Shown piece by piece: positions 5,611-52,319 of a stretch of DNA of 64,000 nucleotides. The number at the start of each line of letters is the position of its first letter. The first letter of the stretch is position 1. The notes beneath the pieces are model-generated. The model was given only the letters and a program-made list of their open reading frames with translations. It was not told the DNA's origin and made no database searches. The stretch covers positions 1,338,150-1,402,149 of the forward strand of contig LR991653.1 of assembly GCA_905171695.1 (NCBI GenBank). Direction: 5' to 3'. Both the position numbers and the translations under genes were made by a program. Source of the DNA: Candidatus Methanoperedenaceae archaeon GB37 (GTDB lineage Archaea; Halobacteriota; Methanosarcinia; Methanosarcinales; EX4572-44).

Positions 5611-6766
5611 TGCTGTGTTGACCAAATGAGAAGATTTATTCGTATTCTTAATAATAAAATTATAAAAATAAGTAAATTTTATGGTATTGGATTTATTATC
5701 ACTATCAGGAGATTATTAACTCAAGAAATGAAACATATAAGATGGGGTAAAAAATTCGAAGATAAGAGAGACTGGAAGTAATATAACGGGAAGTAATATA
5801 ACGGGAAGTAATATAACGGGAAGTAATATAACGAGACGTTGGTCAGACGTGGAGAACTCTACCTCTCATTCGGTTTTCTGGATAGTTGGGATGATGAACT
5901 TGCTATAGATGAATGCGGGCAAAAGAGGAGCACCTTTCTCATACCCAGATCAGTTCGTTGCTTTTATGGGATTTATATATTCGATATTTCATATTCCCTA
6001 CAGGCAAATGGAAGGATTCTTGAGGAAACTTTCAGGTTTAGTTTCCCGAGACATAACAGCGGATTACACGACTTTATTCAAACGTATATCAAAAATGAAC
6101 TTTGATCTCCCAGAGACGATCTCGGAAGAAGAAGACGATATAGTAATAGCCGTAGATCTATCTGGTGTAAAGGTTACAAATCGTGGAGAGTGGATGAGAG
6201 AAAAATGGAGAGTGTACATGGGAGGGATCAAGGTACATATAGCAGTAGATATCAGCACTAAAGAGACTCTGGCTATTGAAGTAACAGATGAGACCGTGTA
6301 ACTGAGAGTGAAAAACTCGATAATCTTATAGATCAGGGAGGGGAGAACATAATATAGGAGGTAAGAAAATAAAACGTGTTTTGGGAGACGGTTGTCATGA
6401 CGATCGAGATTGCTTCAATACCCTGGATAAAAAGAAGATAGAATCTGGAATAAAAACACGAATTAATCCAAGTACGAGGCCGAGAAGACCGCCATACAGA
6501 GCTAAACGTGTTAGAGAAAAGAGAGAACTTGGTGACTACAAAGGTTGACGAGGCAAATATGAATATGGCAAACACCGGATCGTAGAAAGCGTACTCTCCG
6601 CTGTTAAAAGAATATTTGGCGAGATAGTGAGAACGACCAGCATCGAGGGAATCTTCAAAGAAGCAAAAATGAAGTTTAATTTGCTACAATATATTGTTGA
6701 ACTACGTATAGATTTAAAGAGAGTAAGAGAGGAAGTCAGAAAACTAAAGATTTATTCAACACAGCA
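5611..6766 (+). mobile_element. Degraded IS5/IS4-type IS copy (copy C) inserted into fragment B
   Basis: Ends are TGCTGTGTTGACCAAAT (5611) and TTATTCAACACAGCA (6752-6766). The interior encodes broken pieces homologous to the 7007-7729 transposase (LVRRGELYLSFGFLDSWDDEL; GKRGAPFSYPDQFVAFMGFIYSIFHIPYRQMEGFLRKLS...IVIAVDLSGVKVTNRGEWMREKW) with stops and frameshifts. Confidence 0.7.
5774..5833 (+). repeat. Perfect 4 x 15-bp tandem repeat (GGAAGTAATATAACG) inside the degraded transposase 5' region
   Basis: Read directly: units at 5774-5788, 5789-5803, 5804-5818 and 5819-5833. The unit corresponds to the W-K-E-Y-N codons of the intact homologue (KRNWKEYNEKLVRRGEL) but carries a TAA. Confidence 0.95.
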
Positions 6767-7784
6767 GCATTTTATGCTGTGTTGAACAATTAGCTGGATG
6801 GGGTATATCTTCAGGTAATTGTTTCTCTGAGAATGTAAGTTTAAACACTTATGAGCATGTTGTAGAAGATGAATTTCATCTTTACTTCTTGAAATAAAGC
6901 TTCTGTAGATCTTGCTCTGCATGTCTCTCCAAATACTCTTTTAACACCAGAGAAGAAACTCTCTGTTGTCCATCTGCAGCCATACCTGTATTTATCTTTC
7001 CATCTTTCATGACCTAACTCTTTTGGGTTCTCTTACTCTCTTAGCTCTGGATGGAGAGCCTCTTGACTTAGTTGAAGAGTTACTTCTTATCTTGATCACT
7101 GGTTCTACATTATTTTCAGCAAGATAATTGAAATTCTCTCTGCTATCATAACCTCCATCACCATATACCCTACTTATCTCTCCACCTCTTCCTTTAATTT
7201 GCTTTACCAGAGGTTTTAACATCTTTCCATCACCTGTTCTTTCATCTGTTATCTTTAAGGCTAAGAGTTTCCTTGTTTTAACGTCTATAGCAATATGAAC
7301 CTTAATCCAACCCTTTCTCGTTTTCCATTTATGTCTGATCCACTCTCCTCTATTCGTTATCTTCATACCAGACGAATCTATTGCAACTACAAGATCTTCT
7401 CCAAGATTACTAGAGAGTTCAAAGTCTAGTTTCCTCAACCTCTTACAAACAGTGGAATAATCAGCTACCTTTAACTCAGGTATATATTCTGATAATTTCC
7501 TCAAAAATCCTTCCATTTGTCTTAATGGAAGGAAAGCTACATGCAAGAAAGCTAGAAAACACATAAAGGTTCGAGGAAACCTGAAAGGTCTGCCAACCTT
7601 CCCCTCATTCATCCTATTTAATTCTTCATCCCAGTTCTCAAGGAAATCCAATGAGATATAGAGTTCTCCCCTCCGCACAAGTTTTTCATTATATTCCTTC
7701 CAATTTCTCTTACTCTGCATCCCAATCATCCCTCCTGTAAATGAGAAATACAGGAAGGAAACTTAAGAGTTATTCAACACAGCA
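6767..7784 (-). mobile_element. IS5/IS4-type IS copy (copy A), most complete, about 1 kb
   Basis: Terminal inverted repeats with core TGCTGTGTTGAA (6775-6786) and TTCAACACAGCA (7773-7784). It contains the transposase ORF at 7007-7729. Confidence 0.8.
6841..7729 (-). pseudogene. DDE transposase (IS4/IS5 superfamily) with a 1-nt frameshift near its C-terminus
   Basis: The 240-aa ORF reads MIGMQSKRNWKEYNEKLVRRGELYISLDFLENW...LPLRQMEGFLRKL...VVAIDSSGMKITNRGEWIRHKW...YGDGGYDS and ends ...KRVRS*. The conserved tail GHERWKDKYRYGCRWTTESFFSGVKRVFGE...YNMLISV continues in the +1 frame to 6841. Confidence 0.75.
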
Positions 7785-10487: not shown

Positions 10488-10889
10488 GGATGAAGAATTT
10501 GACTCCATGGTTTGCAGAGATCAGCATAGTTATACAAACCTGAACACAATATGGTCAGGAGATATTACGCCGAGTACGGTCTGCTAAGCACTGTGTGACG
10601 TTATTTGTAATGATCATCTCTAAATTTCCTACTTCTTTTTTCATAGCCTATCATCTGTAAACTCAAATCACACACAAATGTAATATATAAATAAAACGAT
10701 TTTTAGTTGTTAAATGGCACATATTGGCTTATACGATGCTGTAATTGAAGTCAAATTATGCAAGAATAATTTTTCGGCTCAGAGTAACGTTTGTATACCG
10801 AGGACATTATTCACGTGCAAAATATGTACGATAATATATTTAAAAAATAATTACTTAATAAAAGTTTCAATTAAAAAATTTAGAAATAT

Positions 10890-11105
10890 TTAAATGAAAT
10901 CTTTAAATGTTTTCTGTTTTTTGTATACTGGCAAAATTTTGGCACTCCGAACGGCTGAATCATTAAATTTCATATCGAATTTTTCCTCAAGTAGGGCTTT
11001 ACCTTCTTTACAAGCTTTTTCTCGATACTTATCACTAGCAAAAATATGGCCTTTCCACTTGTTAGCTATATAACTTTCTAGCCATCCTTTCGGGGACCCG
11101 TCCAC
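10890..11105 (-). pseudogene. 3' part of a gene split by the IS6-like element
   Basis: The frame opens exactly at the IS terminus (V/M)DGSPKGWLESYIANKWKGHIF... The 5' part is ORF 11772-12188(-), which ends inside the other IS terminus. Confidence 0.5.
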
Positions 11106-11794
11106 ATAGGATTATAAATATGGGAGACTATCTTTTATTTATGCTGAGGGTAAGGGAAATTGTTGAAGAGTTGAAGGTGTTTGAGAGGAATAAGGTTCCT
11201 TTTGAGGTTAAGGTTCTCGGTGTTGCAACCTATATTCAGACGTCTTCTGTGAGAAGGACTGCTAGAATTCTCTCTGAGCTTCATCCAGTCTCTAAAACCT
11301 CTGTTTGGAACTGGATACGGAAGTTTGAAGAGAAATTGCCTGTTGTATCAGAGAAGAAGAGAAGATACTCTATAGCATTGGACGAAACAGTTGTTAAATC
11401 AAATAAAAAGGCGTACTATGTCTATTCTGCGGTAGATGTTGAGAAGAACGAGTTAATTCTGATGAGAGTTTATACAAACAGAAATTATCTTGTTTCAAGG
11501 TCTTTTCTCAAAGAAGTGCTAAAGTTCTGCGAGAACAAGCCAAGATTCATCGTTGATAAAGCTCCCTGGCTTATAGATGCACTGAAAAGCCTGGATCTGG
11601 AATTTGAGCATCAAACCTTTCGGAGAGAGAAACCTGGTTGAATCGGTGTTTTCTTCGCTAAAACATAGAATAAAGATATTCTTTTTCTCAATTAGCTCTT
11701 TTAACCCTGTTAAAAACTGGAATTTCTTCTGTAAGCTCTTTATGCTTTATTATAATCGGTTGAGGTGGTGTTTATATTAAGTGGACACGTCCCC
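11092..11794 (+). mobile_element. IS6-family-like insertion sequence (about 0.7 kb)
   Basis: 14-bp terminal inverted repeats GGGGACCCGTCCAC (11092-11105) and GTGGACACGTCCCC (11781-11794), 12/14 complementary. It carries a single transposase gene. Confidence 0.75.
11120..11780 (+). pseudogene. IS6-type DDE transposase with a frameshift
   Basis: The 173-aa ORF reads ...SIALDETVVKSNKKAYYVYSAVDVEKNELILMRVYTNRN...IVDKAPWLIDALKSLDLEFEHQTF and then stops (RREKPG*). The conserved continuation GERNLVESVFSSLKHRIKIFF...YYNRLRWCLY* is in the +1 frame, ending at 11778-11780. Confidence 0.7.
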
Positions 11795-12188
11795 ACTTCT
11801 CCATTTTTAAATCGAATTCTTCTAAATGTCTTCCTTCACGAAATTCTTCTGCTAGATAGGCAGGGCAAACAAGTATTGATTCCATGTATTTATCATGTTT
11901 ATCTGAGATTTGATTTCTATTATTAAAATCCTGTTCTAGGTCACAATCTTGGGTTAAAACAATAATATACGGCACATTTTTTTCTACAACATTATATTTT
12001 GATCCTATGTCATCAGCATATTGCATTTCTAACAATAGCATATCTCTTAAAATATCTCCCTGATAGACCCTTCCGTTATTACGCTTACAGTATTGAGTAT
12101 CAACTTTTGAGGGAAACATAGGCAACGACCCTTTTTCTTGCCTTCGTTTTGGGGTATTTTGAAACATCCAATTCGACATCGTATTCAT
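11772..12188 (-). pseudogene. 5' part of the IS-disrupted gene (unknown function)
   Basis: Reads ...GRVYQGDILRDMLLLEMQ...VPYIIVLTQDCDLEQDFNNRN...ILVCPAYLAEEFREG...MEKWGRVHLI*. The last codons are IS terminus sequence. The true start is probably an internal Met (12167 or 12119) because the 5' end overlaps ORF 12100-12303. Confidence 0.45.
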
Positions 12189-12303
12189 TCATGGGTTCAT
12201 TAATGAGTCTTTTAGAGACATTAATAATCTTATTTTTAACTATAGTTTCTGTTTCGTATTCATCATCTGAAGAATACTTATTTTCCGTTTCAGTGGAATT
12301 CAT
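12100..12303 (-). CDS. Small acidic hypothetical protein (67 aa)
   Basis: Its ATG overlaps the stop of the upstream gene (ATGA at 12300-12303), which suggests translational coupling. The sequence is rich in D/E/T. Confidence 0.4.
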   Translation of the reverse strand: MNSTETENKYSSDDEYETETIVKNKIINVSKRLINEPMNEYDVELDVSKYPKTKARKRVVAYVSLKS

Positions 12304-13037
12304 AATGAATCCTCCTCAATTATTTCTTTGATCTTAGAACCGATACTCTCCTTAAATTTTATCTTTACTAGGTTGTGCATATTATTCAATAAAGTAAACG
12401 TTTCGTTGAAATCACGAGGCTCTTTTGTGTAGCAATCATAATCCAACACAAATTCCCTTTTTGATATTGGATTCGGGAACTCGCTGTTGTACATCCCATA
12501 TTGAAATTTCATTAGAAAGTCATCGTAATTATAAACTATTGTGCCCATACATCTTGCTAAAGTTTTTTTCTCGCTTACAAATTCTAACGATTTAAATAGA
12601 TTTGAATTGATCCAGTTCTCCCAATCAAACGGATTTCCCTCATTTAGCGTTATTTGGTTAATATATTTTAGGCCCAAACGCGCACTGTTTCCTTCTAAAT
12701 TCAATTCATCTATAACAGTCTTTATTAATTTTCTAAAACGTTCAAATGATAAATATTTGGAAACCTCTATCCAAATGGCATTCTCATCAATATGAATCCA
12801 TTCGGTTTCTTGCTCATTCTTAAAATCAAAAGTCTCACTTCGTCTCCTTATGGTTTTTTGCTCGTTTGCCCCCATCATAACTTCAACAGTCTCTAACTGA
12901 CCTTCATTATATTTAGGCAACTCATCCTTTATTTTTTCTTTCGCTTTTCTTAGATAGTCTATAGGGATTTTTTTACGCTCTTCAAAATCGATTTTAAAAA
13001 CAACTTTTGTTAAAAAATTGTCTCTCCCCTCAACCAT
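12300..13037 (-). CDS. Hypothetical protein (245 aa), first gene of a three-gene minus-strand unit
   Basis: Long uninterrupted AT-rich ORF. GGAGG lies 8 nt upstream of the ATG (13043-13047, minus strand). I could not confidently assign a family. Confidence 0.55.
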   Translation of the reverse strand: MVEGRDNFLTKVVFKIDFEERKKIPIDYLRKAKEKIKDELPKYNEGQLETVEVMMGANEQKTIRRRSETFDFKNEQETEWIHIDENAIWIEVSKYLSFERFRKLIKTVIDELNLEGNSARLGLKYINQITLNEGNPFDWENWINSNLFKSLEFVSEKKTLARCMGTIVYNYDDFLMKFQYGMYNSEFPNPISKREFVLDYDCYTKEPRDFNETFTLLNNMHNLVKIKFKESIGSKIKEIIEEDSL

Positions 13038-13177
13038 AGTATTCCTCCGTTTTGCTTAATTCAATTTTATCCATCGCGTGTAGAGATTAGGTGAAGGGTG
13101 TTAAAAAAACTTTCCGTTTCATCTTTAAAACCAATTCCCTCTCTTATTGAAAATTTGGGTCTTCGCCTCGCGAAGCC

Positions 13178-13195
13178 GTTTAACCCCCGTTATGC
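13178..13195 (-). repeat. Short-form junction site (E6): GCATAAC-GGGG-GTTAAAC (minus-strand reading)
   Basis: The plus strand reads GTTTAAC-CCCC-GTTATGC. It is adjacent to the perfect hairpin CTTCGC-CTC-GCGAAG (13161-13175). Confidence 0.4.
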
Positions 13196-13315
13196 CGGGT
13201 TGCGTAGCAATCTGGTTCATGTTTCTTCCTCTCGTTTTCTTCGTTAAACGAATCCAAGCCCTGTTTCTTTTGGTGGTTCAGGTCTCCTTTCCTCCGGGAA
13301 GGAGAATTGGAAATT

Positions 13316-13394
13316 TTGGCTAACGTTCTGCGGATAAAAGAAGTTGCCGAAGGCAATTTGGACGAAGCGTAGCGAAGCCTTTTATTAGATGATG
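13316..13394 (-). repeat. Long-form attC-like structured repeat (E5), decayed copy
   Basis: About 90% identical to 14323-14408 over TAACGTTyTGCGGATAAAAGAAGTTGCCGAAGGCAATTTGGrCGAAGCGyAGCGAA. Relative to that copy it lacks 7 nt (CCGCTGT), which removes half of one stem arm. Confidence 0.7.
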
Positions 13395-13410
13395 TGCGGA
13401 GTCCATATTA

Positions 13411-14259
13411 TCAATAGCCTCCAAAGAATCTTATAAAATCAATAAACCAATGAAATGTAATAGCAGTCTCTAAATTTCGTTTATATTGTAAAAATGCCAT
13501 CGGCAATCCAAATAAAAAACTGGTAGATATTAGCATAAATAGAGCACCTGGTATATTATGTATCCATAATTCTGGAAAGTGAATTAAACTGTGTGGAACT
13601 ATACCAAAGAAAAAACTAATTATAACTGAGTATTTCCTCTCAACCTTCCCTTCCAATAAATAAAATATGAAATTCATAGTAAAAAACCTAAATATAATCT
13701 CTTCAGAGATTCCTGGTGCTAAAGCTAAAAAACCTGCACTAAATATGTTTGTCCATTCAGCCTCACCTAAAGTCAGTCTAAAATAGATGTAATTTATTAA
13801 TGCAAAAGGTAATGCAACTATAAGACCTATTAAAAATGACTTAAATAATGATTTATACTTCTGTAATATGAGTAATGACTTGTTTCTATTACTTCCACCC
13901 GATAATAAACTACCTCCAAGAAATGCAACAAATGTTACAATAGAGTTAATTACTACTGTGAATATGTCTGTTTGTTGAATAAAACTAAAATAACTTATAC
14001 CCGATAACAATATTCCAAGCGCAATATATCTTAAACTCAACCACTTAAATTTCTTATAAATTACTATTAAAGCAAGACAAAATATATAATATTCTGTCCA
14101 TGTCCAGGCTCTATATGTAAACCCAGAATCCTGTTTACTTAGTGTATGGACAATTGAAATTATGTATATTAAAACAAATATGGTGAACAAAAGTATGGTG
14201 TATATAAAATATTTCTTGAAATTATTATTCATATCTTTATTTAAAACAACGCTTCTCAT
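13411..14259 (-). CDS. CPBP-family intramembrane glutamic endopeptidase (CAAX protease/Abi-like)
   Basis: 282 aa, polytopic. It has the three CPBP motifs: GISEEIIFRFF (EExxxR), FGIVPHSLIH (FxxxH) and ITFHWFIDF (HxxxD/N). Confidence 0.75.
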   Translation of the reverse strand: MRSVVLNKDMNNNFKKYFIYTILLFTIFVLIYIISIVHTLSKQDSGFTYRAWTWTEYYIFCLALIVIYKKFKWLSLRYIALGILLSGISYFSFIQQTDIFTVVINSIVTFVAFLGGSLLSGGSNRNKSLLILQKYKSLFKSFLIGLIVALPFALINYIYFRLTLGEAEWTNIFSAGFLALAPGISEEIIFRFFTMNFIFYLLEGKVERKYSVIISFFFGIVPHSLIHFPELWIHNIPGALFMLISTSFLFGLPMAFLQYKRNLETAITFHWFIDFIRFFGGY

Positions 14260-14322
14260 TATATCTTGATTCCTCTCTTTCTTTTTCTTTAATCAATATT
14301 CCAATTACCATCACATTAGCAT

Positions 14323-14408
14323 GTCATCTAACGTTTTGCGGATAAAAGAAGTTGCCGAAGGCAATTTGGGCGAAGCGCAGCGAAATCTTTTATCCGCTGT
14401 TATATGAC
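14323..14408 (-). repeat. Long-form attC-like structured repeat (E4)
   Basis: Minus-strand reading: GTCATATAAC-A-GCGGATAAAAG-(38 nt incl. TTGCCTTCGGCAA hairpin)-CTTTTATCCGC-AAAAC-GTTAGATGAC. It has a perfect 11-bp stem pair, and the outer boxes are 9/10 complementary. Confidence 0.8.
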
Positions 14409-14462
14409 CCGAAGGGTAAGGTTGCAAAGCAACCATAGAGTACCGAACCCCGTCTAATATTT

Positions 14463-14927
14463 TCATTTTGGCTTACTATACCACTCTTTTTTTCCTTTAA
14501 GGAATTCATCCACTCCTTTTTTCTTAATTCTCCTTAGATTTCTTATATGGGCATCCCCGTGATTCGGCTTTAAAAAGTCCAGCTTCTCGCATGTTTCAAA
14601 TTCATCGCACTCCCAGCACCCCTCAAATCCTCTCTTCTGGCAACATTTCCTTATCTTGCAGAAAGGCGGACCTCCACCACCTCTGCAAGCGTTCTTGCAT
14701 CGCATTTTTACTAATGCACCCAGCACTTCATAGCATTCACTGTAGTTCTTGTATGCGGCAAAGAACGGCATCGTAGCCAGGTATTCCGCTGTCTTGTCAA
14801 ATTTTGTCTCTCTTAATTCTTTTCTGAGATCCCTTGCCAAATCTGCCGCCTTTTGCCTGTATCCAATACAATCCCCACAATAAAGACCACAGTATGCGAT
14901 TAGGTCCTTGTATTCTTTATTATTCAT
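14463..14927 (-). CDS. Cysteine-rich protein (DUF3795-like)
   Basis: 154 aa with YCGLYCGDCIGY near the N-terminus and a C-terminal Cys cluster (CKNACRGGGGPPFCKIRKCCQKRGFEGCWECDEFETC). GGAGGT lies 8 nt upstream of the ATG. Confidence 0.55.
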   Translation of the reverse strand: MNNKEYKDLIAYCGLYCGDCIGYRQKAADLARDLRKELRETKFDKTAEYLATMPFFAAYKNYSECYEVLGALVKMRCKNACRGGGGPPFCKIRKCCQKRGFEGCWECDEFETCEKLDFLKPNHGDAHIRNLRRIKKKGVDEFLKGKKEWYSKPK

Positions 14928-14997
14928 TTCTTGACCTCCATAAATGACACTTTGAATCTCTTTAATATTTCTATTTCCAAAGGCAGGGTTCGGAATT

Positions 14998-15018
14998 TCA
15001 TATAACTATGTTATATCA
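14998..15018. repeat. Palindromic minimal site TCATATAAC-TAT-GTTATATCA at the boundary of the cassette region
   Basis: Read directly. It overlaps the stop codon (15011-15013) of the CcdA/DsbD-like gene. Its minus-strand half GTTATATGA-AATTCCG matches the conserved GTTnnnnGAAATTC motif. Confidence 0.7.
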
Positions 15019-16363
15019 CTCCGAGTTGGATCAGTGCGGCGAGTGCGAAGAGCGTTATCCCTGTTATGATGCGGAGGGCGACACGCCACTCTTCTCTGAA
15101 CGATTCAACCTTCTCTGGGGCAAGTCCCGTGGCGATGGCTGCGCCTATGAGAAGCACTGGGAGCATGACTCCGAGGTTGTAGATTGCAAGGTATAACATG
15201 GCACTTGATTTGCCGCTCTTTATCATCTCGAGTATTGCAAGGTATATGGCGCCGACACACGGGGCTTTTATAAGTGAGAAGAGGCTTCCGAGTATGAAGG
15301 ATGCTGGGAGGCTTGCACCTTCTATTGCTCGTTCGGTCATTTTTGTGAAGATTTTTGGTGTGCGGAAGGTCGATCTCTTGTTCTTCTCGGATGTGTGGAT
15401 GTGATATGCGTCGTATACCTGCCAGAGCCCGAGTGCTACGATTAAGAGAACCAAGAATGTCTGGACCCCTTCCTGCATCTCACTGCCGATGACTTCGAGA
15501 AGACCGATTCCGAATATCAGATAGGTGGTGAAGATCCCAGAGCTGAAGGCAATCACAATGTAGAGAACGTTTCTTCTCTTTCCAGTGGATGCAAGGGTGA
15601 TACTTGCTATGAATGCAATTATTGCAAATAGGCAGGGGTTCAATCCAGCAAATAGTCCCATGAGTAAGATTGAAGGTGGTGAAAGGTCTGGTCTAACGTT
15701 TATCGTCAGGTCTTCTGATGCAAAGGTATGGTTTGAATCGTTCAGATAGAGGATTGTTCTTGAGAGGAGCCGTCTGCCATACCCTGATTTCTCTACTCTG
15801 ACTTGGTAGGTGTACGAGGCTTTATCATGGGGCTTGAGTCGTGCGTTCCACGAGGTCTCTCCGCCGATGAGTGTTGCGTTCGAAGTGAGGCGTTCGGTTG
15901 CGTTGATCTCTGCACTCCTGTTGCCTGTGTTTGTGAGAGTGATTGTGACGTTGATGAGATCCCCAGGTGCAGTCGATGTCCTGTCTGACCTCTTCTCGAT
16001 CGTTATAACAGGTTTTCCTCCTAAGGATTCTTCGATCTCTCTAAGAAGGAGTCTCTTGAGGAGTGTGGTGTTGCCGTTGTAGTCTTCATAGCTAATGAGC
16101 GTTGTTTCATCTATCACGATGCTTGGGATCTCGAAGACTCCATAGCTCTTTGCCTTCAGGATTCCTTCGTCGTTCTTGAGGTTATAGATCTCGTAGTGTA
16201 CTTTTCCCTCGTATCTGTAAACGACCTCTTCAACGACTGGGCGTGCGTCCTCGCATCTTGAGCAGAGTGGGTCGTAGAAGTATTTCACGCTGATGGGAGA
16301 CCTGGCGCTGGCTGGTATTGAGGGGAGGAGTAGAAGTAAGAGGAGGAGTGGCAAGACTCTCAT
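15011..16363 (-). CDS. Thiol:disulfide transfer membrane protein (signal peptide + thioredoxin-like CxxC domain + beta-sandwich + CcdA/DsbD transmembrane domain)
   Basis: 450 aa with MRVLPLLLLLLLLPSIPASA; DPLCSRCEDARP; and a C-terminal polytopic region with GLNPCLFAIIAF and IKAPCVGAIYLAIL (the two conserved Cys of DsbD/CcdA). Confidence 0.7.
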   Translation of the reverse strand: MRVLPLLLLLLLLPSIPASARSPISVKYFYDPLCSRCEDARPVVEEVVYRYEGKVHYEIYNLKNDEGILKAKSYGVFEIPSIVIDETTLISYEDYNGNTTLLKRLLLREIEESLGGKPVITIEKRSDRTSTAPGDLINVTITLTNTGNRSAEINATERLTSNATLIGGETSWNARLKPHDKASYTYQVRVEKSGYGRRLLSRTILYLNDSNHTFASEDLTINVRPDLSPPSILLMGLFAGLNPCLFAIIAFIASITLASTGKRRNVLYIVIAFSSGIFTTYLIFGIGLLEVIGSEMQEGVQTFLVLLIVALGLWQVYDAYHIHTSEKNKRSTFRTPKIFTKMTERAIEGASLPASFILGSLFSLIKAPCVGAIYLAILEMIKSGKSSAMLYLAIYNLGVMLPVLLIGAAIATGLAPEKVESFREEWRVALRIITGITLFALAALIQLGVI

Positions 16364-16504: not shown

Positions 16505-17137
16505 TTATCTTTCAAGTATCATCGTTGTTGTGGCGTTCATCGTTCTGCTGTTCATCACAAGAGTTGCTGTTACGCTGTGTATGCCTGGATCGAGCTTGGC
16601 ACAGCCTGTGCAGCTCGGTGTTGTGAATGTGAAAGGTATCTCGTTCTCACCCGGGCTCAGATTCACATACCTAACCTCTCTTATTTTATCTCTACCCAGC
16701 TTATTTGTGAGCCCTGAGACCGTTAGTTCTACGTCGGATAGTTCACTCTCAGCGAAGACTGTTACGTTCACATGCATCATCTCACCAGAGTGATATGTCT
16801 CGTTCTCTATGGCAATCACGAGAACTGGTTTCACGTCTTCTACTTTCAAGAGAGGGGTATCGTTCTGATCGCTGAATGTTCCCCAAAGCGCTGCATAGAT
16901 GCCGGCATTACCGTAATCATCGATGGTATCTGATATGTTCTCAAGTTTGATCGCTCCGTCAAGCATTCCGTCCCTGATCTCGCCCTCAAGAGAGACATGC
17001 TTATCTATGTATTCGCTCCCATTTGCGAGGAGCTCTCTTGGTGATAACTCTTCATATACGATCTTCTCTGTGCATCCCATGCCTGCAATAACTATTGCCA
17101 GGATGCCTATCAGGATCTTTGATCTTATTCCCTTCAT
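16505..17137 (-). CDS. Putative secreted lipoprotein, unknown function
   Basis: The internal start gives MKGIRSKILIGILAIVIAGMGC (signal peptide plus lipobox-like Cys). The 53 upstream codons of the track ORF lie in repeat/promoter-like sequence. Confidence 0.5.
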   Translation of the reverse strand: MKGIRSKILIGILAIVIAGMGCTEKIVYEELSPRELLANGSEYIDKHVSLEGEIRDGMLDGAIKLENISDTIDDYGNAGIYAALWGTFSDQNDTPLLKVEDVKPVLVIAIENETYHSGEMMHVNVTVFAESELSDVELTVSGLTNKLGRDKIREVRYVNLSPGENEIPFTFTTPSCTGCAKLDPGIHSVTATLVMNSRTMNATTTMILER

Positions 17138-17264
17138 CGTTACTGCCGTCCACTCGTACTCTCTTCTGGATAATCGGTCCCTCATCCAAACTCTCTCCTC
17201 GGGATGAATGCACCGATTCTCCAGGAGCAGGTTCTCTAATACTCGTTCTATAATATTAGTCTTA

Positions 17265-17302
17265 CCCAATCCCCATCTTCTATATATTATATCCATGGGT
17301 GG
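17265..17302 (+). repeat. Left copy of a direct repeat bracketing the type III-C island
   Basis: CCCAATCCCCATCTTC (17265-17280) ... TGGGTGG (17296-17302). The same two blocks recur at 24825-24840 and 24846-24852. Confidence 0.8.
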
Positions 17303-17305
17303 CGG

Positions 17306-17437: not shown

Positions 17438-18523
17438 ATGGAAATTAAAATTAAGGCACTTACGCCCATCTGGACTGGTGGAGTGGAAGGCAAACCAGAC
17501 AGATTGCATACGACAAGCATCATTGGCAGCATGCGTTGGTGGTACGAGGTCGTTGTTAGGGGCCTTGGAGGGTATGCGTGTGATCCGTCGAGCGAAAAGA
17601 GATGTGAATTGTCGGGTAAGGAAAAGACACGTGAGGAAAGGCTTGCTAAGTTGTGCCCGGCATGTTATCTGTTTGGATGTGGGGGATGGAAAAGAAGATT
17701 TCGGTTAGAGGTTCAGAGTAATACCTCTGTTCCTTTTCAATTGGCCACTTTGGAAAGTAAGAACAAATTCAATCACTGGTGGCTTTCGCAGATTTTTGAA
17801 GATTCGCGAGGAACGAATTTACCATTTGGAGAGATATCATTGTCTTTAAATGGGGATGATGACGTGATTGATCAGGTTAAAGCTCTACTCTCTATCATGG
17901 TAAATATTGGTGGAATCGGTGCAAAAACTCAATATGGGTATGGTCAATTCGATTGGGACGATAAAATAGAATTAAAAAATGCGATTAACACAATTCGCCA
18001 GTTCTTATCAGGAAATATTTTTAAAAGCGGTTCAAACAAAGATAAATGGTATTCACTGACTAATTTTTGGTATTACAAATTGTCCATAACGTCTGACAAT
18101 GGGTTGGTGAACAAATTTAAAAATGCAAACTTGATTGGCAATGGAAATATGCCCTCGGATTATTTGCCTGTTTCGTTCGACATTCGCTATAAAATGCCAA
18201 GTTCTGGGGATGGTACTGGATTAAGGAGTGCATATTATTCATTTTGTAGGCATTCCATGTCAAAAGAAGACGCAAAACAAAAAACAAGATCATTATTTGG
18301 AACACTTGAAAATGATAAAATCGGAAGCAGGATTTTTGTAAGTCATCTTTTCAGGAGGAGAAACATTGATAATAATCATCATCTGAAAGTTTGGGGATTT
18401 ACTGACGATTCGGTTGGAAAAGTTGTTGGTGATGAATTAAAGAACATTTTTGGATTGGATAAACCCCCTTCTATAGTAACTGGAAAAGAGCTTATCAACT
18501 ACTCAAGGGGTGAAGTCCAATGA
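17438..18523 (+). CDS. cmr1: Type III RAMP protein, Cmr1-like (Cas7 group)
   Basis: 361 aa with IKALTPIWTGGVEGKPDRLHTTSIIGSMRWWYEVVVRGLGG, a Cys cluster ending CPACYLFGCGGW, and the Gly-rich GGIGAKTQYGYGQF. Confidence 0.75.
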   Translation: MEIKIKALTPIWTGGVEGKPDRLHTTSIIGSMRWWYEVVVRGLGGYACDPSSEKRCELSGKEKTREERLAKLCPACYLFGCGGWKRRFRLEVQSNTSVPFQLATLESKNKFNHWWLSQIFEDSRGTNLPFGEISLSLNGDDDVIDQVKALLSIMVNIGGIGAKTQYGYGQFDWDDKIELKNAINTIRQFLSGNIFKSGSNKDKWYSLTNFWYYKLSITSDNGLVNKFKNANLIGNGNMPSDYLPVSFDIRYKMPSSGDGTGLRSAYYSFCRHSMSKEDAKQKTRSLFGTLENDKIGSRIFVSHLFRRRNIDNNHHLKVWGFTDDSVGKVVGDELKNIFGLDKPPSIVTGKELINYSRGEVQ

Positions 18524-19767
18524 ATTATGATTATTGCTCGCATCTCACGAAGGAACAAAACCAAACCATTGAAAAAATATTGCGTCTAGAAAATGAAATA
18601 AAACAGGATAAACAGATAAAACAACAAAAAGAAACCGAAGTCGGAAGGCTACGAAAAGAATTATTATCACAAAACCCGCATTTGTTCTATCACGTTATAG
18701 CAGTGTTGAATAATTCATTAAAAGATAATTTACGCTCCACATGGCAAACGGGAAATATCAATATAAAATTGAACAATTACCATATCGATGAAATTATATC
18801 TCCATCAATCAACATATCCGTACTTCCAAAATACTCTTTTCTAATCCAATTCAAATTTACACTCGAAAAACCTTATATCTCACGTGATGAACAGGATTTT
18901 TACATCATAGACAATCCTATCCGCAAAGACAGGGTCTTTGGTCTTCCCTATATTACTCCCTCCTCATGGAAGGGAAGCCTACGGGCCGCACTGTGGCAAA
19001 ATGGACATAAAGAAGACGATGTCCAGATCAATCGAATATTTGGAAATAAACGAGGGATAGAAGAGCATACTGAACTCAAAGCCGGGCGATTGCATCTGTT
19101 TCCCACATTCTTTGATAGAATCGGTCTTGAGATAATAAATCCTCATAACAGGGAGAGACGGATTGTTGAGTATCCGATTCGTATCGAGGCCGTTCCGGGT
19201 GGTACATCGGGTATATTCACCCTTTTATATGTTCCATTCGATTTGATTGGGAAGAATGAAAAGGAGTTTAATAATCAGATCTCAAAAGATGTATGGATAA
19301 TTGCGCAGGGATTGAAAGCAATGTTCAGAGATTATGGCTTCGGTGCAAAGACTTCCAGTGGATTCGGTATTGCAAAACCAGAATTTACCGAAGGAAAACT
19401 CGTTCTGAAGGTCGAGGGCATAGACATCAACCAAAAAGAGGAGGCGACCATCCAAGAACCGGAGGACGGGTTTAAAAAATATCTTAATAGCGATGGGATT
19501 GTGAAAGAGGAGTTTAAAGGGAGTGGCGACGCTGGCCTTCTCAGCAACAATGAGTATAGCGAAACGGGTGAAAAATACGGCGGCGGCAGTCTTACCGAGT
19601 TCAAAAAGTTCAGGCGATGGTATGGCCGTTATGGTGAGAAATGGCAACAACAGTTAAAGAATTCTCATGCCGAATGGCCTATCTGGTGGTTTGAAAGCTT
19701 TGACGAGCTGGTGAATGTTGCGACGGAAATAAAAGAATCACTACTTTCCAAGGAGGCTGCGCGATGA
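18520..19767 (+). CDS. cmr6: Type III RAMP protein, Cmr6-like (Cas7 group) with N- and C-terminal extensions
   Basis: 415 aa with FGLPYITPSSWKGSLRAALW...INRIFG and the G-rich loop YGFGAKTSSGFG. It overlaps its neighbours by 4 nt at both ends (operon coupling). Confidence 0.7.
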   Translation: MNYDYCSHLTKEQNQTIEKILRLENEIKQDKQIKQQKETEVGRLRKELLSQNPHLFYHVIAVLNNSLKDNLRSTWQTGNINIKLNNYHIDEIISPSINISVLPKYSFLIQFKFTLEKPYISRDEQDFYIIDNPIRKDRVFGLPYITPSSWKGSLRAALWQNGHKEDDVQINRIFGNKRGIEEHTELKAGRLHLFPTFFDRIGLEIINPHNRERRIVEYPIRIEAVPGGTSGIFTLLYVPFDLIGKNEKEFNNQISKDVWIIAQGLKAMFRDYGFGAKTSSGFGIAKPEFTEGKLVLKVEGIDINQKEEATIQEPEDGFKKYLNSDGIVKEEFKGSGDAGLLSNNEYSETGEKYGGGSLTEFKKFRRWYGRYGEKWQQQLKNSHAEWPIWWFESFDELVNVATEIKESLLSKEAAR

Positions 19768-22451
19768 CTCCTGACCTTTCAGTTCTGAAGGAAAATAAGG
19801 AAGTCCTCCTCGCAGAGATGGCCGCCTGGCTGCATGATATGGGGAAGTGTAGCGATGAGATGATAGAAAAACAGGCTTTGGATTGTCCATCATCACCCAC
19901 ATTTCAATCCAATAGTGCATATAAAACCGCTTTTTCTTATCTACTGAATGGTAATAATCATAATATTAATTTGTTAGGCGAAACAGTAACCTTTAAAGAC
20001 CTCGTTGAAAAGGGGATGCCTAGGGCAATAAAGGATAGTAGTATTCAATTATCGCTAATTAAATACTTGGGTCGGTGTCATGCTGCTGCGCACATCGAAA
20101 AAGAAGGACAAGCAGATAAAAAGCAGACGGTGAATGATACAAGATTGAGTTCTCCCTTTGGAAATGAAACGGAAGTATTAGTACGTCTTACAGATAAGTT
20201 GAAAGCTTTGCCCTTTGATAAAATAGTCAACAGGGAGGAATTCCTGCCTATTTTGAAAGAAACATTCAAAAACGCACCTGGAGACACGGAAAGACCAATA
20301 AACGAGGTTGATCTGTGGAGCTGGTCCAGCATAGTCGCTGCTCTTTACAAATCTGCACTGGCAGGGGCACTTCTTGGTAACAAACCCAAACCAAATGATT
20401 TGAAGTGGCGGTTGTTGGCCATAAGAATTGATTCCGATAGGATTCTTGGCGATGTGGCGAAGATTCCAGTATTGCTTGCCAGAAAGAAATGGATTACCGA
20501 AGGGTTAGATAATGTTAAAGAACTGATTGAAGAAGAATATCCTCTTGGAAACGAGGTTTACAGGGATGAGAGCGGAAGTATTTTCGTTGTGCCGGACATC
20601 CCGAGTCTATTGAAACTTAAAGAAAATGCGGATAGTTCTGAAAAGACCTTGGAAGATTTAATCTCCAAAAAGTTAGGATTTGAAGGAGAGATTGTTGTAA
20701 CGCCTTCGTTATCTGAACACTGGTGGGGTCAGAATCCTAGTGGAAGACCTGATCCTACGAAAGATAAGATCCCACCGATTGGAGAGATCTTTCAGGAAAA
20801 ACCATATTCACCACCGGACCCAGAAAAGGTTAAGGAATGGTGGCGGGATGTGGACAATACAGAGATTTGCACGATTTCCTGGCTGAGACCTCAGGGAAAA
20901 AAAGAAGGAGCTTTGAGAAAATCTTCAGATTACTGGGCAAAAAAGGTTCGGGGACGATCTGAAGAATGGTATAAGGACAGGAGCAAAACTATATGGATAG
21001 ATGAGGTGGCAGATAAAAACGGCAGAATATGTCTCATCACCGGCAAACTGGACATATCAGGATGGTTAAAACCTAACGGTCATGTGAGGACCCTGCTTGT
21101 TAAGGCTCCAGATGGTAATTCCAGTCAAGTCATTCAGAAAACCCCTTCATTCGCTCGCCTCAGACGTGTCTGGGAAACAACAAAGACGTTCTGGGAGGAA
21201 GTCGAAGAAGATTTTGAGAAAACTGTCGGCAGGGTAGAAAAAAGATTGGTTATTACTGGCTCTGTAGATGATCTATCCAAAAATAAGCTTTTTAAAAACA
21301 ATGTGTATGAGATAGATATCGAAAAAACAAGGGTAAGTGTTTTCTATTCTGGAAATGGTCGGTTTATTGTCGTTGAAAATCTTGAACGATTGGCCCGTAA
21401 GATGGGTTATTCAAAGAACGATGATGACTATTTAGTGTACATTCAACAAGAATTAAACGATAAAGAAGTCAGAATATATAATCCAGACGGTAATAATAGA
21501 AATAAGCACATTGTACTAATAAAAATGTTGAGGGTCGAGCCGATAGAGGATAATTTCATTCCTGTGATCCCTATCTTCTCTGAGCCCAGTCTATTCATGG
21601 CAATCGTACCTGCCAACAAGGCTATGGACATCGTAAAAAACATCAATAAAAAATATGAAATAGAAATGGATAAAGTACGAAACCGTCTCCCTCTTAATAT
21701 CGGATTGACCTTTGCCAGATCTCATACGCCGATAATGGCTTTAATGGAGTCGGGGTGGAAGATGATAAACGCATCTCTAAAGGAGGAAATCAGGATACTC
21801 AATGCAGACTCTGAAAAATGCGATGATAAATATATCTTAAATTTCGAGAACGGGATAACCTGGCGTGTTCAGGGGAAAATGGGGGATGGAATAACAGAAG
21901 ATGTTTGGTATCCGTATTTTTATGTGGATGGAAATCCGAACGATAGAAATATGGTTTTTAAAGGTCCGAAGGGGTGGCTAGTGCATGTATCAGAATTAAA
22001 AAAAGGGGATGCCGTCAAAATCACACCTTCCTCTTTTGATTTCGAGTTTCTGGATTCTGCATCCCGGAGGTTTGAGATATCTTATGATGAAACTGGAAAA
22101 CGGCGTGATAATACAAAATCTAACCGTCCATATTTGATTGATAAATTTGATGACTTCGAGCGTATCTGGAAAGAGATGACAAATAATTTAGCAGCCACTC
22201 AAATAAAGAACGTCATAGGCCTTATTGAAACCAAACGGGAGGAATGGAATGTTTCCAGAGATGATGAAACATTCAAACAATTCGTCAATGATGTTCTCCG
22301 CAATGCCAACTGGAAGCATGGCACCCCTCAAAACCTCGATGAGATCACAAACATAGCAGTAAGTGGAGAGTTAAAAGATATTATCGAACTTTACATGAAT
22401 ATACTGAAGGCAAAAGGAGATTATATGAACGATACAGAGGTGAATACATGA
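19764..22451 (+). CDS. cas10: Cas10 large subunit with N-terminal HD domain and no GGDD cyclase motif
   Basis: 895 aa with HD motif AAWLHDMGK at residues 20-28. The conserved post-palm segment is RLPLNIGLTFARSHTPI. Where GGDD is expected about 40 aa upstream, the sequence reads SEPSLFMAIVPA. No GGDD occurs anywhere in the protein. Confidence 0.8.
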   Translation: MTPDLSVLKENKEVLLAEMAAWLHDMGKCSDEMIEKQALDCPSSPTFQSNSAYKTAFSYLLNGNNHNINLLGETVTFKDLVEKGMPRAIKDSSIQLSLIKYLGRCHAAAHIEKEGQADKKQTVNDTRLSSPFGNETEVLVRLTDKLKALPFDKIVNREEFLPILKETFKNAPGDTERPINEVDLWSWSSIVAALYKSALAGALLGNKPKPNDLKWRLLAIRIDSDRILGDVAKIPVLLARKKWITEGLDNVKELIEEEYPLGNEVYRDESGSIFVVPDIPSLLKLKENADSSEKTLEDLISKKLGFEGEIVVTPSLSEHWWGQNPSGRPDPTKDKIPPIGEIFQEKPYSPPDPEKVKEWWRDVDNTEICTISWLRPQGKKEGALRKSSDYWAKKVRGRSEEWYKDRSKTIWIDEVADKNGRICLITGKLDISGWLKPNGHVRTLLVKAPDGNSSQVIQKTPSFARLRRVWETTKTFWEEVEEDFEKTVGRVEKRLVITGSVDDLSKNKLFKNNVYEIDIEKTRVSVFYSGNGRFIVVENLERLARKMGYSKNDDDYLVYIQQELNDKEVRIYNPDGNNRNKHIVLIKMLRVEPIEDNFIPVIPIFSEPSLFMAIVPANKAMDIVKNINKKYEIEMDKVRNRLPLNIGLTFARSHTPIMALMESGWKMINASLKEEIRILNADSEKCDDKYILNFENGITWRVQGKMGDGITEDVWYPYFYVDGNPNDRNMVFKGPKGWLVHVSELKKGDAVKITPSSFDFEFLDSASRRFEISYDETGKRRDNTKSNRPYLIDKFDDFERIWKEMTNNLAATQIKNVIGLIETKREEWNVSRDDETFKQFVNDVLRNANWKHGTPQNLDEITNIAVSGELKDIIELYMNILKAKGDYMNDTEVNT

Positions 22452-23407
22452 ACAGTGAAAAGAAAAAGCTGTACACCCACCAGCGGTTTGTAATGTTCGC
22501 TCTTGACCCGATTCATATTGGGGCTGGTGGATACCGTCTTGGTCGGGTTGACAACAGTATTGTAAGAGAAATGGGGACGAATTTACCGAAGATTCCGGGT
22601 ACAAGCCTTGCAGGTGCCGCGCGAAGTTATGCTTCGATGAGATATGGGAAGCCTGAAGCCGCAGGCCAGCATAAACGGTTTATAGGTGAAAAAGAGAAGT
22701 GCCCGATAATCTACACCTTTGGAACCGCAACGGAAACCGGTGGTGAGGCAGGCAAGGTCAGCTTTGGAGATGCAAGGATTTTATTCTTCCCGGTGCCTTC
22801 AGTGGCGGGTCCTGTATGGGTCACCACAAAGGAGATTCTTGAGGAAGTTGGGTTCACCGTTAATGGTGGCGATGTCGGTGAGGAAACTGTGCTGTCCAAT
22901 CTTTCCTGGAGTAAAGAGCAAATAAACCTCGGCTGGTTATCGTTGAATCATAACTGGGGCTTAACCATTTCTCCACCCGAAGAAATCAAAGACAAAAAGG
23001 GATGGAAAGCAATAGAAAACAGGATTGTCCTCATTTCTCAGAAATTGTTTTCAGAGGTTGTCAACAGCAATTTGGAGGTGCGAACATCGGTTGCCATAAA
23101 CCCCGAGACCGGAGCTGCTGAAGACGGTGCCCTGTTCACATATGAAGCATTACCTCGAGCTACCTGGTTATGGCATGATATCATCGAGGATGATTACAAA
23201 CAAAGTTTCCCGAAAACGGAAAATCAATTCAAAGATAACAAGGAAAACAGTGGGGATGCTCTCGGGGAGATATGGGAGCGACCGTTGGATGTTGTGAAAG
23301 CCGGTTTAAGATTAATCGAATACCTTGGAATCGGTGGCATGGGGACACGCGGTTTTGGGAGGATGAAAAACATCTGTGATTGGGAGGTTGGCAGTAATGA
23401 ATCTTGA
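22448..23407 (+). CDS. cmr4: Cmr4-like Cas7 backbone subunit
   Basis: 319 aa with ALDPIHIGAGGYRLGRVDNSIVRE...LPKIPGTSLAGAARSYA and the C-terminal GIGGMGTRGFGRM glycine-rich loop. Confidence 0.8.
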   Translation: MNSEKKKLYTHQRFVMFALDPIHIGAGGYRLGRVDNSIVREMGTNLPKIPGTSLAGAARSYASMRYGKPEAAGQHKRFIGEKEKCPIIYTFGTATETGGEAGKVSFGDARILFFPVPSVAGPVWVTTKEILEEVGFTVNGGDVGEETVLSNLSWSKEQINLGWLSLNHNWGLTISPPEEIKDKKGWKAIENRIVLISQKLFSEVVNSNLEVRTSVAINPETGAAEDGALFTYEALPRATWLWHDIIEDDYKQSFPKTENQFKDNKENSGDALGEIWERPLDVVKAGLRLIEYLGIGGMGTRGFGRMKNICDWEVGSNES

Positions 23408-23762
23408 CCTTGAAGCTACGAGAACCTCCCAGGAAATAATAACGAAGACGGGAGGAAATAGATCCAGTGAGGTTGAAAACCTGATTACTAAGACGCTAGG
23501 GGTTCTTCAGGAGAACGGCATTTATGCATGCACACTCTATCTGAACTCCAGAACGAGTGAAGCGGAGAAGAAGATTGGCCCTGTCATCCACGAGGAACTT
23601 CTTAAAATGACGAAACGACTTGTTAAGACACCAATAAAAAACGATGATTACGAATATCTTACGGACGAAATCTGTTCAGACATTGACCTACTTATACTAA
23701 CAAAACAGCTCTGGGAGCAGACATTGACCTATGCTAGATACGGGGCGAAAGCAAGGACGTGA
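23397..23762 (+). CDS. cmr5: Cmr5-like small subunit (Cas11)
   Basis: About 121 aa and predicted helical (..VENLITKTLGVLQENGIYACTLYLNSR..). It lies between cmr4 and cmr3. The ATG at 23397 overlaps the cmr4 stop region; the track ORF starts at 23376. Confidence 0.6.
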   Translation: MNLDLEATRTSQEIITKTGGNRSSEVENLITKTLGVLQENGIYACTLYLNSRTSEAEKKIGPVIHEELLKMTKRLVKTPIKNDDYEYLTDEICSDIDLLILTKQLWEQTLTYARYGAKART

Positions 23763-23766
23763 TATT

Positions 23767-24660: not shown

Positions 24661-24803
24661 CTCTGCGGACACTCCGTGTCCTTGCCTCGCCTTCGGCTCG
24701 GTCATATAACATGCGGGTATGCGGTTCGGGCTTACGCCCTCACCCAAATTGCTCCGCTCCCGTTGGTCGCTACGCAACTTCGCATACCCGCAAACCGTTA
24801 TAC
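24661..24803 (+). repeat. Long-form attC-like structured repeat (E1) immediately 3' of the type III-C operon
   Basis: CTCTGCGGACACTCCGTGTCCTTGCCTCGCCTTCGGCTCG-GTCATATAAC-AT-GCGGGTATGCG-(58 nt incl. CACCCAAATTGC)-CGCATACCCGC-AAACC-GTTATAC. It has the same architecture and conserved blocks as 14323-14408(-), but the 11-bp stems carry different, mutually compensating sequences. Confidence 0.8.
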
Positions 24804-24824
24804 CAACAATAAGTTTACAGAACC

Positions 24825-24852
24825 CCCAATCCCCATCTTCTTATATGGGTGG
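24825..24852 (+). repeat. Right copy of the direct repeat bracketing the type III-C island
   Basis: CCCAATCCCCATCTTC (24825-24840), TTATA, TGGGTGG (24846-24852). Compare 17265-17302. Confidence 0.8.
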
Positions 24853-24943
24853 TGTGTCTCGATATCTCTTTTATTGGTCTCATAGTTTATGTACCAAAAC
24901 AGATATACTATGATTGTCATCCAGCCGTCTTGTATTCGATTGT

Positions 24944-25049
24944 GCGAGGGTAACCAAGTCGGCCAAAGGTGCAGGACTTAAGTGGTACTGGTGGTATCGG
25001 AGTTATCCTGTCTCGAAGGAGTTCATGGGTTCAAATCCCATCCCTCGCA
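24944..25049 (+). tRNA. tRNA-Leu (anticodon UAA) with a 22-nt intron after position 37
   Basis: Acceptor GCGAGGG/CCCTCGC; anticodon stem CAGGA (24972-24976)/TCCTG (25006-25010); loop CTTAAG + intron TGGTACTGGTGGTATCGGAGTT (24983-25004) + A; long variable arm; T arm ATGGG-TTCAAAT-CCCAT. No CCA is encoded. Confidence 0.8.
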
Positions 25050-52214: not shown

Positions 52215-52319
52215 CGAGAACGCCACGGGACACTCCAAGCGAGAACCCGCATAAAAACAAGCGAAAAGAATAAAAAGCATAATGATAATAATCACTAAAC
52301 AAGGTGGGCACAGACAACA

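Follow-up and report, generated by a model that had tools for sequence, protein, structure and literature searches.

A decaying array of probably integron-like gene cassettes with non-canonical sites in a Methanoperedenaceae archaeon

Genes and repeated elements downstream of dsbD

We analyzed 64,000 nt of the genome of Candidatus Methanoperedenaceae archaeon GB37 (contig LR991653.1, positions 1,338,150 to 1,402,149; this whole stretch is called the window below, and positions are counted from its first letter), in which an earlier reading of the sequence alone (the sequence-only reading) had proposed an integron-like array of gene cassettes. On the minus strand, the GC-rich host gene dsbD is followed by AT-rich DNA containing two genes, one encoding a DUF3795 protein and the other an Rce1/CPBP-like protein; the GC content is 0.49 in dsbD and 0.33–0.37 in the AT-rich cassette DNA (0.37 in cassette 1). 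Each of the two genes is followed by a copy of a palindromic element (E4 and E5, respectively), and a third, degenerate copy (E6) ends a unit that lacks an open reading frame (ORF). The features are summarized in Table 1. The DsbD protein shows 100% identity to one of a Candidatus Methanoperedenaceae archaeon. All of the sequences quoted in the sequence-only reading were found on the minus strand at the positions where it had placed them.

Table 1. Features of the cassette array and copies of the element in the window
Feature	Position	Strand	Basis
Host gene dsbD, thioredoxin-DsbD/CcdA fusion	15011..16363	-	Pfam DsbD_TM + Thioredoxin
Array junction (putative pseudo-attI), TGATATAAC-ATA-G|TTATATGA	14998..15018	-	Sequence
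Cassette 1: ~75-nt conserved leader, DUF3795 Cys-rich gene, conserved 3΄ flank, E4	14332..15005	-	
DUF3795 Cys-rich gene	14463-14927	-	Pfam DUF3795
E4 (intact)	14318..14440	-	Covariance model R1, 89.6 bits, E=2e-23; nhmmer E=5e-30; DNA fold
Cassette 2: CPBP/Rce1-like membrane protease gene and E5	13324..14331	-	Pfam, sequence
CPBP/Rce1-like membrane protease gene	13411-14259	-	Pfam Rce1-like
E5 (damaged)	13310..13402	-	Covariance model R1, 65.4 bits
Unit 3, ORF-less, start TTAGCCAAAAT, end = decayed element E6	13097..13323	-	
Diverged fourth copy	24699..24811	+	Covariance model R1, 35.5-43 bits, E=2e-7 to 7e-9

The intact copy, E4, consists of the outer box R'' GTCATATAAC (14408–14399), a single A, the inner box L'' GCGGATAAAAG (14397–14387), a 38-nt loop with two hairpins, L' CTTTTATCCGC (14348–14338), AAAAC and R' G|TTAGATGAC (G|TT at 14332–14330, where the bar marks the putative crossover; right end GTTAGATGAC), and its cores read ATATAAC...GTTAGAT. 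E5, at a distance of 1,008 bp, has 66 nt in common with E4 at 92% identity, and a 31-mer present in both has two matches in the window, compared with an expectation of 0. E5 contains TCATCTAA at 13392–13385 and an intact right half up to G|TTAGCC (G|TT at 13324–13322), and has lost 7 nt (CAGCGGA), namely the last bases of R'' and the first of L''. The sequence-only reading had proposed folding both strands of each site in search of extrahelical bases; E4 folds significantly on both strands (z = –3.8 to –3.9), whereas E5 has no significant fold (z ~0), owing to its deletion at the junction of R'' and L''. No extrahelical base occurs in the L stem. The degenerate copy E6 (GGCATAAC-GGGGGTTAAAC-GGCTTCGCGAGGCGAAGACC-CAAATT..., at ~13100–13209) scored weakly (partial nhmmer match at 13165–13209, E=0.19; 9.7 bits at 13097–13187 with the covariance model R1, described below; direct repeat D12). 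The 'short site GCATAAC-GGGG-GTTAAAC', which had been read as a site of its own, is not an R''/R' pair but R'' and the decayed L'' of E6. The diverged fourth copy, whose L stem GCGGGTATGCG/CGCATACCCGC is compensatory (24705–24802), is located directly 3΄ of a type III-C cas operon (Cas10c and Cmr5 by PADLOC; repeat-associated mysterious proteins by Pfam). R1 found only these 3–4 copies in the 64 kb, all at cassette-like positions, which speaks against a generic repeat that is abundant in non-cassette contexts.

No element precedes cassette 1, which begins with the TT at 15005 and abuts the dsbD stop codon (GAGTGATATAA-CATA-G|TTATATGAAATTCC). The palindrome TGATATAAC-ATA-GTTATATGA that the sequence-only reading had taken for a site in its own right is present, but it is not free-standing: most of its left arm is the 3΄ end of dsbD, GAGTGATATAA being the last codons and the stop and thus the left half of the insertion junction. 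In relatives with a 77–80% identical DsbD, the gene ends in GGAGTAATATGA or GGAATAATATAA and no cassettes are present, the genes that follow encoding BofA and an amino-acid kinase; since these relatives keep the 3΄ end, the palindrome is interpreted as an insertion junction. Only dsbD itself is common to both sides of this synteny comparison, and the exact empty site could not be reconstructed from it. We infer that the 3΄ end of dsbD was used as a pseudo-attI for insertion of the cassettes.

The contents of the array have counterparts in other genomes. The DUF3795 gene together with E4 is 75% identical at the nucleotide level to a cassette in a single-cell genome of Candidatus Aerophobus (locus L049), in which the next cassette opens with the same ~75-nt leader as cassette 1 of the window. 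The motif at the start of cassette 1, GTTATATGAAATTCCGAA..GCCTTTGG, was also found 3΄ of full elements in L049, L078 and L089, and CPBP genes recur as cargo beside the element in L001, L036 and L104.

Structure and distribution of the element family

Copies of the element follow a common plan, in which the 5΄ part comprises a variable outer box ending in TAAC, an A, GCGGATAAAAG and a variable hairpin, and the 3΄ part comprises CCAAATTGCC-TTC-GGCAACTT, CTTTTATCCGC, AAAAC and GTTA followed by variable bases. The site can accordingly be written as an imperfect palindrome of ~80–90 nt, R''(RYYYAAC)-A-GCGGATAAAAG-(variable hairpin)-(TTGCC-TTC-GGCAA hairpin)-CTTTTATCCGC-AAAAC-R'(G|TTRRRY). We computed structure statistics from 68 aligned copies of equal length. 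The 11-bp L stem was paired at 96.7%, without a bulge or extrahelical base, the sole asymmetry around it being an internal loop of 1 nt on one side and 5 nt on the other. The second hairpin was paired at 98%, four pairs in the variable hairpin were compensatory with both sides changed, and the AAC and GTT cores were at least 93% conserved. Across phyla, most positions of the inner ~60 nt are at least 90% conserved, and in diverged copies double changes preserve the L stem. Each loop consists of 3 nt, which read TTC on the top strand and hence GAA on the bottom strand (GCC-GAA-GGC), and in one common type of variable hairpin the bottom strand contains two copies of GCGAAGC; DNA hairpins formed by d(GCGAAGC) or with a GNA triloop are of exceptional stability. 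A structured RNA with UUCG tetraloops was considered and rejected, because the loop register is that of a 3-nt TTC/GAA triloop, which favors bottom-strand DNA hairpins. A tRNA-derived att site and a repeat of the clustered regularly interspaced short palindromic repeats (CRISPR) type were likewise rejected.

The exact 21-mer of the right arm (TCGGCAACTTCTTTTATCCGC) was found in at least 119 contigs of species-representative genomes, distributed over dozens of bacterial and archaeal lineages. The bacterial hosts include Aerophobetes, WOR-3, Atribacteria, Dehalococcoidia, Patescibacteria, Omnitrophica, Cloacimonadia, Thermotoga, Firmicutes and Actinomycetota, and the archaeal hosts include ANME-1, Methanosarcinales, Altiarchaeota, Aenigmatarchaeota, Bathyarchaeia, Nitrosotalea and Methanofastidiosum. 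Among these hosts are an isolate, Caldisericum sp. AR60, and organisms known from single-cell genomes, and one viral contig of IMG/VR (53.6 kb) contains a full copy (L120:10592–10690). Many of the 21-mer matches are located at contig ends. No match was obtained in the plasmid and phage collections that were searched, the element matched no Rfam family in either gathering or E-value mode, and a literature search for its sequence gave unrelated primer matches only. Literature searches on integrons in the host lineages and on XerA with attC found nothing specific.

Arrays of co-oriented cassettes and pairing within cassettes

We counted copies of the element in the fetched loci using the covariance model R1, which was built from the element, after palindromic shadows had been removed. 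This yielded 185 copies, and 43 loci had multiple copies (2–6 each), which were strictly co-oriented in 41 cases. The median spacing of the elements was 1,060 bp (interquartile range 758–1,842), and of 154 nearest upstream ORFs, 142 shared the strand of the element, the distance from the end of the ORF to the element being ~30 nt. Restriction-modification genes, methyltransferases, PIN/DUF433 pairs, flavoproteins and CPBP proteases recur as cargo, which is what integron arrays typically carry. Unrelated cassettes have conserved 5΄ leaders of ~75 nt (window 14928–15005; L049:960–1050; several loci), one type of which reads GTTATATGAAATTCCGAAyCCyGCCTTTGG..AAATATTAAA..GGAGGT..ATG and the other GTTATACGCAATCGGCTTCGGGACGCA, and many cassettes have in common a conserved 3΄ flank, CTGCGGTTGCTTCGCAACCTTGCCCTTCGGGTCATATAAC. 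The leaders carry a ribosome-binding site and promoter-like boxes. Considering the conserved leaders and 3΄ flank, the mobile 'site' of a circular cassette may extend over ~200 nt and include signals for expression.

The sequence-only reading had noted that the variable bases next to the AAC/GTT cores pair within a unit and not across a junction. This was confirmed for both window cassettes, the start and end of cassette 1 being complementary at 9/9 positions and those of cassette 2 (TTAGATGA and TCATCTAA) at 8/8, and the rule generalizes. For 59 cassettes bounded by two elements, we scored the R'' box at the 3΄ end at its eight variable positions. The mean number of matches was 4.93 with the start of the same cassette (R' of the previous site), compared with 3.78 for R' of the same site and 3.49 for random R' boxes. 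Pairing with the own cassette exceeded same-site pairing in 39 cassettes, with 13 losses and 7 ties (Wilcoxon test, p=2e-5), whereas R'' did not match R' of the same site better than expected by chance (p=0.054). The base after GTT (GTTA or GTTG) likewise goes with the cassette. This pairing shows that both halves of the outer stem of a cassette are carried by that cassette itself.

Comparisons between loci point in the same direction. Identical 3΄ ends of cassettes were found with different neighbors, the sequences diverging after GTT (L011/L101), GTTA (L057/L089) or GTTATC (L021/L029), which bounds the breakpoints to at or before GTT| and not to one phosphodiester bond. The reverse arrangement, in which two loci would agree in the cassette start and differ in the upstream cassette, was not found at the thresholds used. 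Together, the pairing and the breakpoints are the footprint that would be expected for strand exchange at or just before GTT, with excised units rejoining their own half-sites, as in integrons. The 3΄ cassette end and element of L011 (2852–2950; Deltaproteobacteria bin) and L101 (795–893; Candidatus Methanofastidiosum bin) are 100% identical and are followed by different cassettes; the identity reflects either recent exchange between the two domains or an artefact of binning.

A tyrosine recombinase and an attI-like site in related loci

Among 862 ORFs from 120 loci, no protein family recurred near the element more often than one tyrosine recombinase, which is encoded at 12 loci, with C-terminal remnants in a further 5, and no recurrent HUH, IS91 or other transposase was found. 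Members of this family are 40–64% identical to each other and 30–34% identical to IntI1 (the IntI1 query served as a probe only). The best NCBIfam model was NF040815 'site-specific tyrosine recombinase/integron integrase', the cut-off of which was passed by the two best members, while the match to TIGR02249 was split in two stretches and scored 230, compared with a cut-off of 265. The closest solved structure, VchIntIA (2a3v), aligned in two pieces: the 60-residue IntI segment 171–230 corresponds to only ~20 residues in the recombinase, ~40 being absent. XerA structures align with it colinearly. The simple tyrosine recombinases termed 'integron-like' comprise IntI and IS91- or IS3-associated recombinases without the IntI insertion (Smyshlyaev et al., 10.1101/542381), and given that the IntI segment is mostly absent and the XerA alignment colinear, the present family falls with the insertion-less members of that group. 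It resembles them in its best match to VchIntIA with the insertion missing, in the split TIGR02249 match and in one IS91-type locus (L118, in which IS91-like genes adjoin related recombinases), but differs in being linked to cassette arrays and an attI-like site and not to IS91 or IS3, and in often having an extra N-terminal domain of ~65 residues. Public data contain at least 7,900 homologues at E<1e-30, many of them on short contigs, and the genes are multi-copy, occur on short, repeat-broken contigs and lie inside arrays or at their head.

An attI-like site was found 3΄ of the recombinase gene, in the same orientation, consisting of one to three palindromes (G)TATATNCGAAC-N2-6-GTTCGNATAT followed by 5–6 nt (GAACAA or AAACAA) and then by G|TTA and a cassette leader. 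The motif was present in 15 of 124 loci, compared with an expectation of ~0.03 per 64 kb, and always just 5΄ of GTTA and a cassette start. The window junction resembles the right half of such sites (for example, GTCGTATATAAAC-AA-GTTGTGCG in L099). As an independent test, we started from recombinase homologues that were picked solely on the length of their contig. L130 (Methanotrichaceae) contains the recombinase, two attI-like palindromes and three restriction-modification cassettes, each ending in the element, and in L128 the element flanks the recombinase on both sides and follows every restriction-modification cassette. The arrays 3΄ of the recombinase in these two loci (L128:9163–16936 and L130:9408–15823) are almost entirely restriction-modification pairs, in which N6_N4 methylases are combined with endonucleases of the BsaWI, AlwI, Bpu10I and MvaI/BcnI types. 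In three loci, the element directly precedes the recombinase gene (L117:1180–2477, L128:7875–9053 and L129:120–1298), which is thus placed inside the array like a cassette. This suggests that the unit of recombinase and attI may itself be mobile.

Comparison with canonical integrons and other explanations

We built a surrogate covariance model of canonical attC sites (R2), which differs from the model of IntegronFinder, from attC-aadA7 and nine archaeal attCs assayed by Ghaly et al. Of two class 1 loci used as controls, one contained no attC other than that used in training; in the array of the other, R2 recovered all four attCs (aac(6')-Ib-cr, arr-3, dfrA27 and aadA16), three of which were outside the training set, with no false match at E<1. 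The attC model check that the sequence-only reading had proposed turned out against canonical sites: R2 matched none of E4, E5 and the 24.7-kb copy at E<=10, and on 12 array loci it gave one weak match among more than 40 elements. Conversely, R1 found no attC in the class 1 array. R2 misses the elements because of their geometry, that is, spacers of 1 and 5 nt instead of ~5 and 5–6, an L stem without an extrahelical base, and a conserved inner sequence; attCs have been reported to be similar only within one genome or order.

By layout alone, the window would qualify as a cluster of attC sites lacking integron integrases (CALIN; at least two sites less than 4 kb apart and no integrase), with E4, E5 and the decayed E6 and no recombinase in 64 kb, but its sites are not canonical attCs by the surrogate R2. 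An ordinary CALIN, with canonical attCs and a genuine IntI from another part of the genome, is nevertheless worth weighing. Integrons and CALINs have been reported in archaea, one of them in a Methanoperedens metagenome-assembled genome (MAG), and the archaeal integrons have putative attIs immediately 3΄ of intI (Ghaly et al. 2022, PMC9668308), so that part of that data set may overlap the present element and recombinase family. The NCBI family name of the recombinase also refers to integron integrases. Furthermore, the system is like integrons, including archaeal integrons and 'reverse' integrons, in which intI and the cassettes have the same orientation, in its tandem, co-oriented cassettes of ~1 kb made of an ORF and a site, outer RYYYAAC...GTTRRRY boxes, inner paired L boxes around a variable loop, pairing of own halves, neighbor switches at GTT, an attI-type site by a tyrosine recombinase gene, integrase-less clusters, and cargo rich in restriction-modification, toxin-antitoxin and small proteins without known function. 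The attI beside the recombinase gene was seen in related loci only, and the window junction merely mimics its right half. Unlike in integrons, however, the inner ~60 nt are conserved over dozens of phyla and not in structure alone, the L boxes have no extrahelical bases, ~40 residues of the additional domain that distinguishes IntI near patch III are absent from the recombinase, which falls below the TIGR02249 cut-off, the leaders carry expression signals, and the recombinase gene is sometimes located inside the array. We therefore regard an ordinary CALIN as improbable. Between the two possibilities that the sequence-only reading had named, a CALIN-type array and a new analogous system, the failure of R2 and the insertion-less recombinase favor the latter.

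The remaining explanations are less probable still. A generic repetitive extragenic palindrome, miniature inverted-repeat transposable element or intrinsic terminator, in which the AAC/GTT complementarity would be the mere base of a hairpin, could account for a strong hairpin ~30 nt past stop codons and for the many matches at contig ends; it predicts pairing within the same site, however, whereas pairing was observed within the own cassette. The specific link to a tyrosine recombinase and attI-like site, the near-identical sequence in both domains, the small number and cassette-like positions of the window copies and the lack of an Rfam family also make it very unlikely. We consider equally unlikely the view that the host's chromosome-dimer resolvase XerA mobilizes modules flanked by double-stranded dif-like sites (dif/pdif, integrative mobile elements exploiting Xer). 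Like XerA, the two best recombinase members pass NF040815, and the family is colinear with XerA structures. In contrast to archaeal XerA/dif, the recombinases are multi-copy, linked to mobile elements, also bacterial, in or at the head of arrays and often extended at the N-terminus, and the sites are long, structured palindromes of ~80–90 nt in direct orientation, not ~28-bp dif sites (two 11-bp arms and a 6–8-bp center) in inverted pairs. Moreover, the spacer on the GTT side is GAACAA in attI-like sites and AAAAC in the elements, a difference that would argue against classical two-strand exchange across a homologous overlap. Least probable of all is that the elements are ends of a single-strand transposon (HUH, IS200/IS605- or IS91-type) or of another mobile element, with the genes as passengers: the stable single-strand hairpins and the IS91-like genes of L118 would suit such an origin, but no HUH or IS91 transposase recurs near the element, where the tyrosine recombinase alone does so, and the units are tandem and co-oriented, with one site per junction.

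Taken together, the co-oriented arrays, the pairing rule, the neighbor switches at GTT and the recombinase with its attI-like site elsewhere support the integron-like cassette array that the sequence-only reading had proposed. We conclude, with a probability of roughly 0.8, that the region is a decaying, integrase-less array of an integron-like cassette system whose sites are non-canonical and whose IntI-like recombinase is without the insertion. Several observations weigh against this conclusion. Neither a recombinase nor an attI-like site is present in the 64-kb window, as the sequence-only reading had already noted for integrase and attI. The identification of E6 is weak and relies on visual comparison with the family consensus. 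Because the loci are mostly MAG contigs, some phylum assignments may be binning errors. Finally, a comparison of related genomes, which had been suggested as a check, showed neighbor switches at GTT in other loci but no presence/absence polymorphism of the window cassettes; a scan of metagenomes with a degenerate dsbD 3΄ end found the known relatives and one contig (L127) with the same junction, and no gain or loss. With E5 and E6 damaged and no recombinase nearby, the window array is now probably a largely immobile fossil.

Proposed organization and implications

In complete platforms, the recombinase gene is followed, in a single orientation, by one or more attI-like palindromes, 5–6 nt with G|TTA, and the cassettes, each of which comprises a leader, an ORF, the conserved 3΄ flank and one site of ~80–90 nt. 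Strand exchange would take place at G|TT between a folded, single-stranded site and attI or another site, and excised cassettes would be circles. Of the two strands, the bottom one probably serves as the substrate, given that it forms GAA triloops of the hyperstable GCGAAGC or GCC-GAA-GGC type. In the window, the cassettes would have been inserted at the pseudo-attI made by the last dsbD codons, which accounts for the arrival of the DUF3795 and CPBP genes beside dsbD in this genome.

It is conceivable, although we put this forward tentatively and as somewhat less likely than its opposite, that these loci represent a second, hitherto undescribed lineage of integron-type systems, which could be called 'minimal' integrons or proto-integrons. 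In this lineage, the IntI-like recombinase, missing the insertion that reads extrahelical bases, would act on conserved hairpin sites without such bases, with attI 3΄ of its gene, and cassettes carrying restriction-modification, toxin-antitoxin, membrane protease and possibly whole cas modules would circulate among dozens of anaerobic bacterial and archaeal phyla. If this is true, standard integron finders are largely blind to the system. The joint absence of the IntI insertion and of extrahelical bases bears on the evolution of integrons from Xer-like recombinases, and the proposed strand selection is experimentally testable. Since the 21-mer tracks sites that the canonical attC model misses, integron surveys may undercount cassette traffic in uncultivated lineages. 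If active, the system would be a cross-domain platform for gene exchange in anoxic sediments, subsurface habitats and bioreactors.

Other features of the window

The type III-C effector operon that precedes the fourth copy of the element is complete, and operon and element are bracketed by an imperfect direct repeat, CCCAATCCCCATCTTCT..TATAT..GGGTGG (window 17265–17303, 17438–24660, 24699–24857 and 24944–25049). The right copy of the repeat duplicates the 5΄ end of the minus-strand gene at 16505–17296. A cassette start complementary to R'' of this element was looked for and not found; the cas module and the element may form a large cassette-like or integrative module. The window also carries an intron-containing tRNA, located just past the bracketing repeat.

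Where the sequence-only reading had named toxin-antitoxin modules, the neighbors of the cassette array are a gene for a TIGR04255-family protein and ORFs without a family match. The DNA beyond the array (10500–13100) is also AT-rich and probably foreign, and holds the TIGR04255-family gene (12300–13037), two ORFs without a family match and an IS240/IS6-like transposase fragment (11120–11641). A 2,672-residue ORF extends over 41855–49873. At 5778–5832, four tandem 15-nt repeats with the core GTTATATTAC adjoin IS5-like transposase fragments (5909–6301 and 7007–7729), and the stretch at 52000–58000 is very AT-rich, with a GC content of 0.27–0.35.

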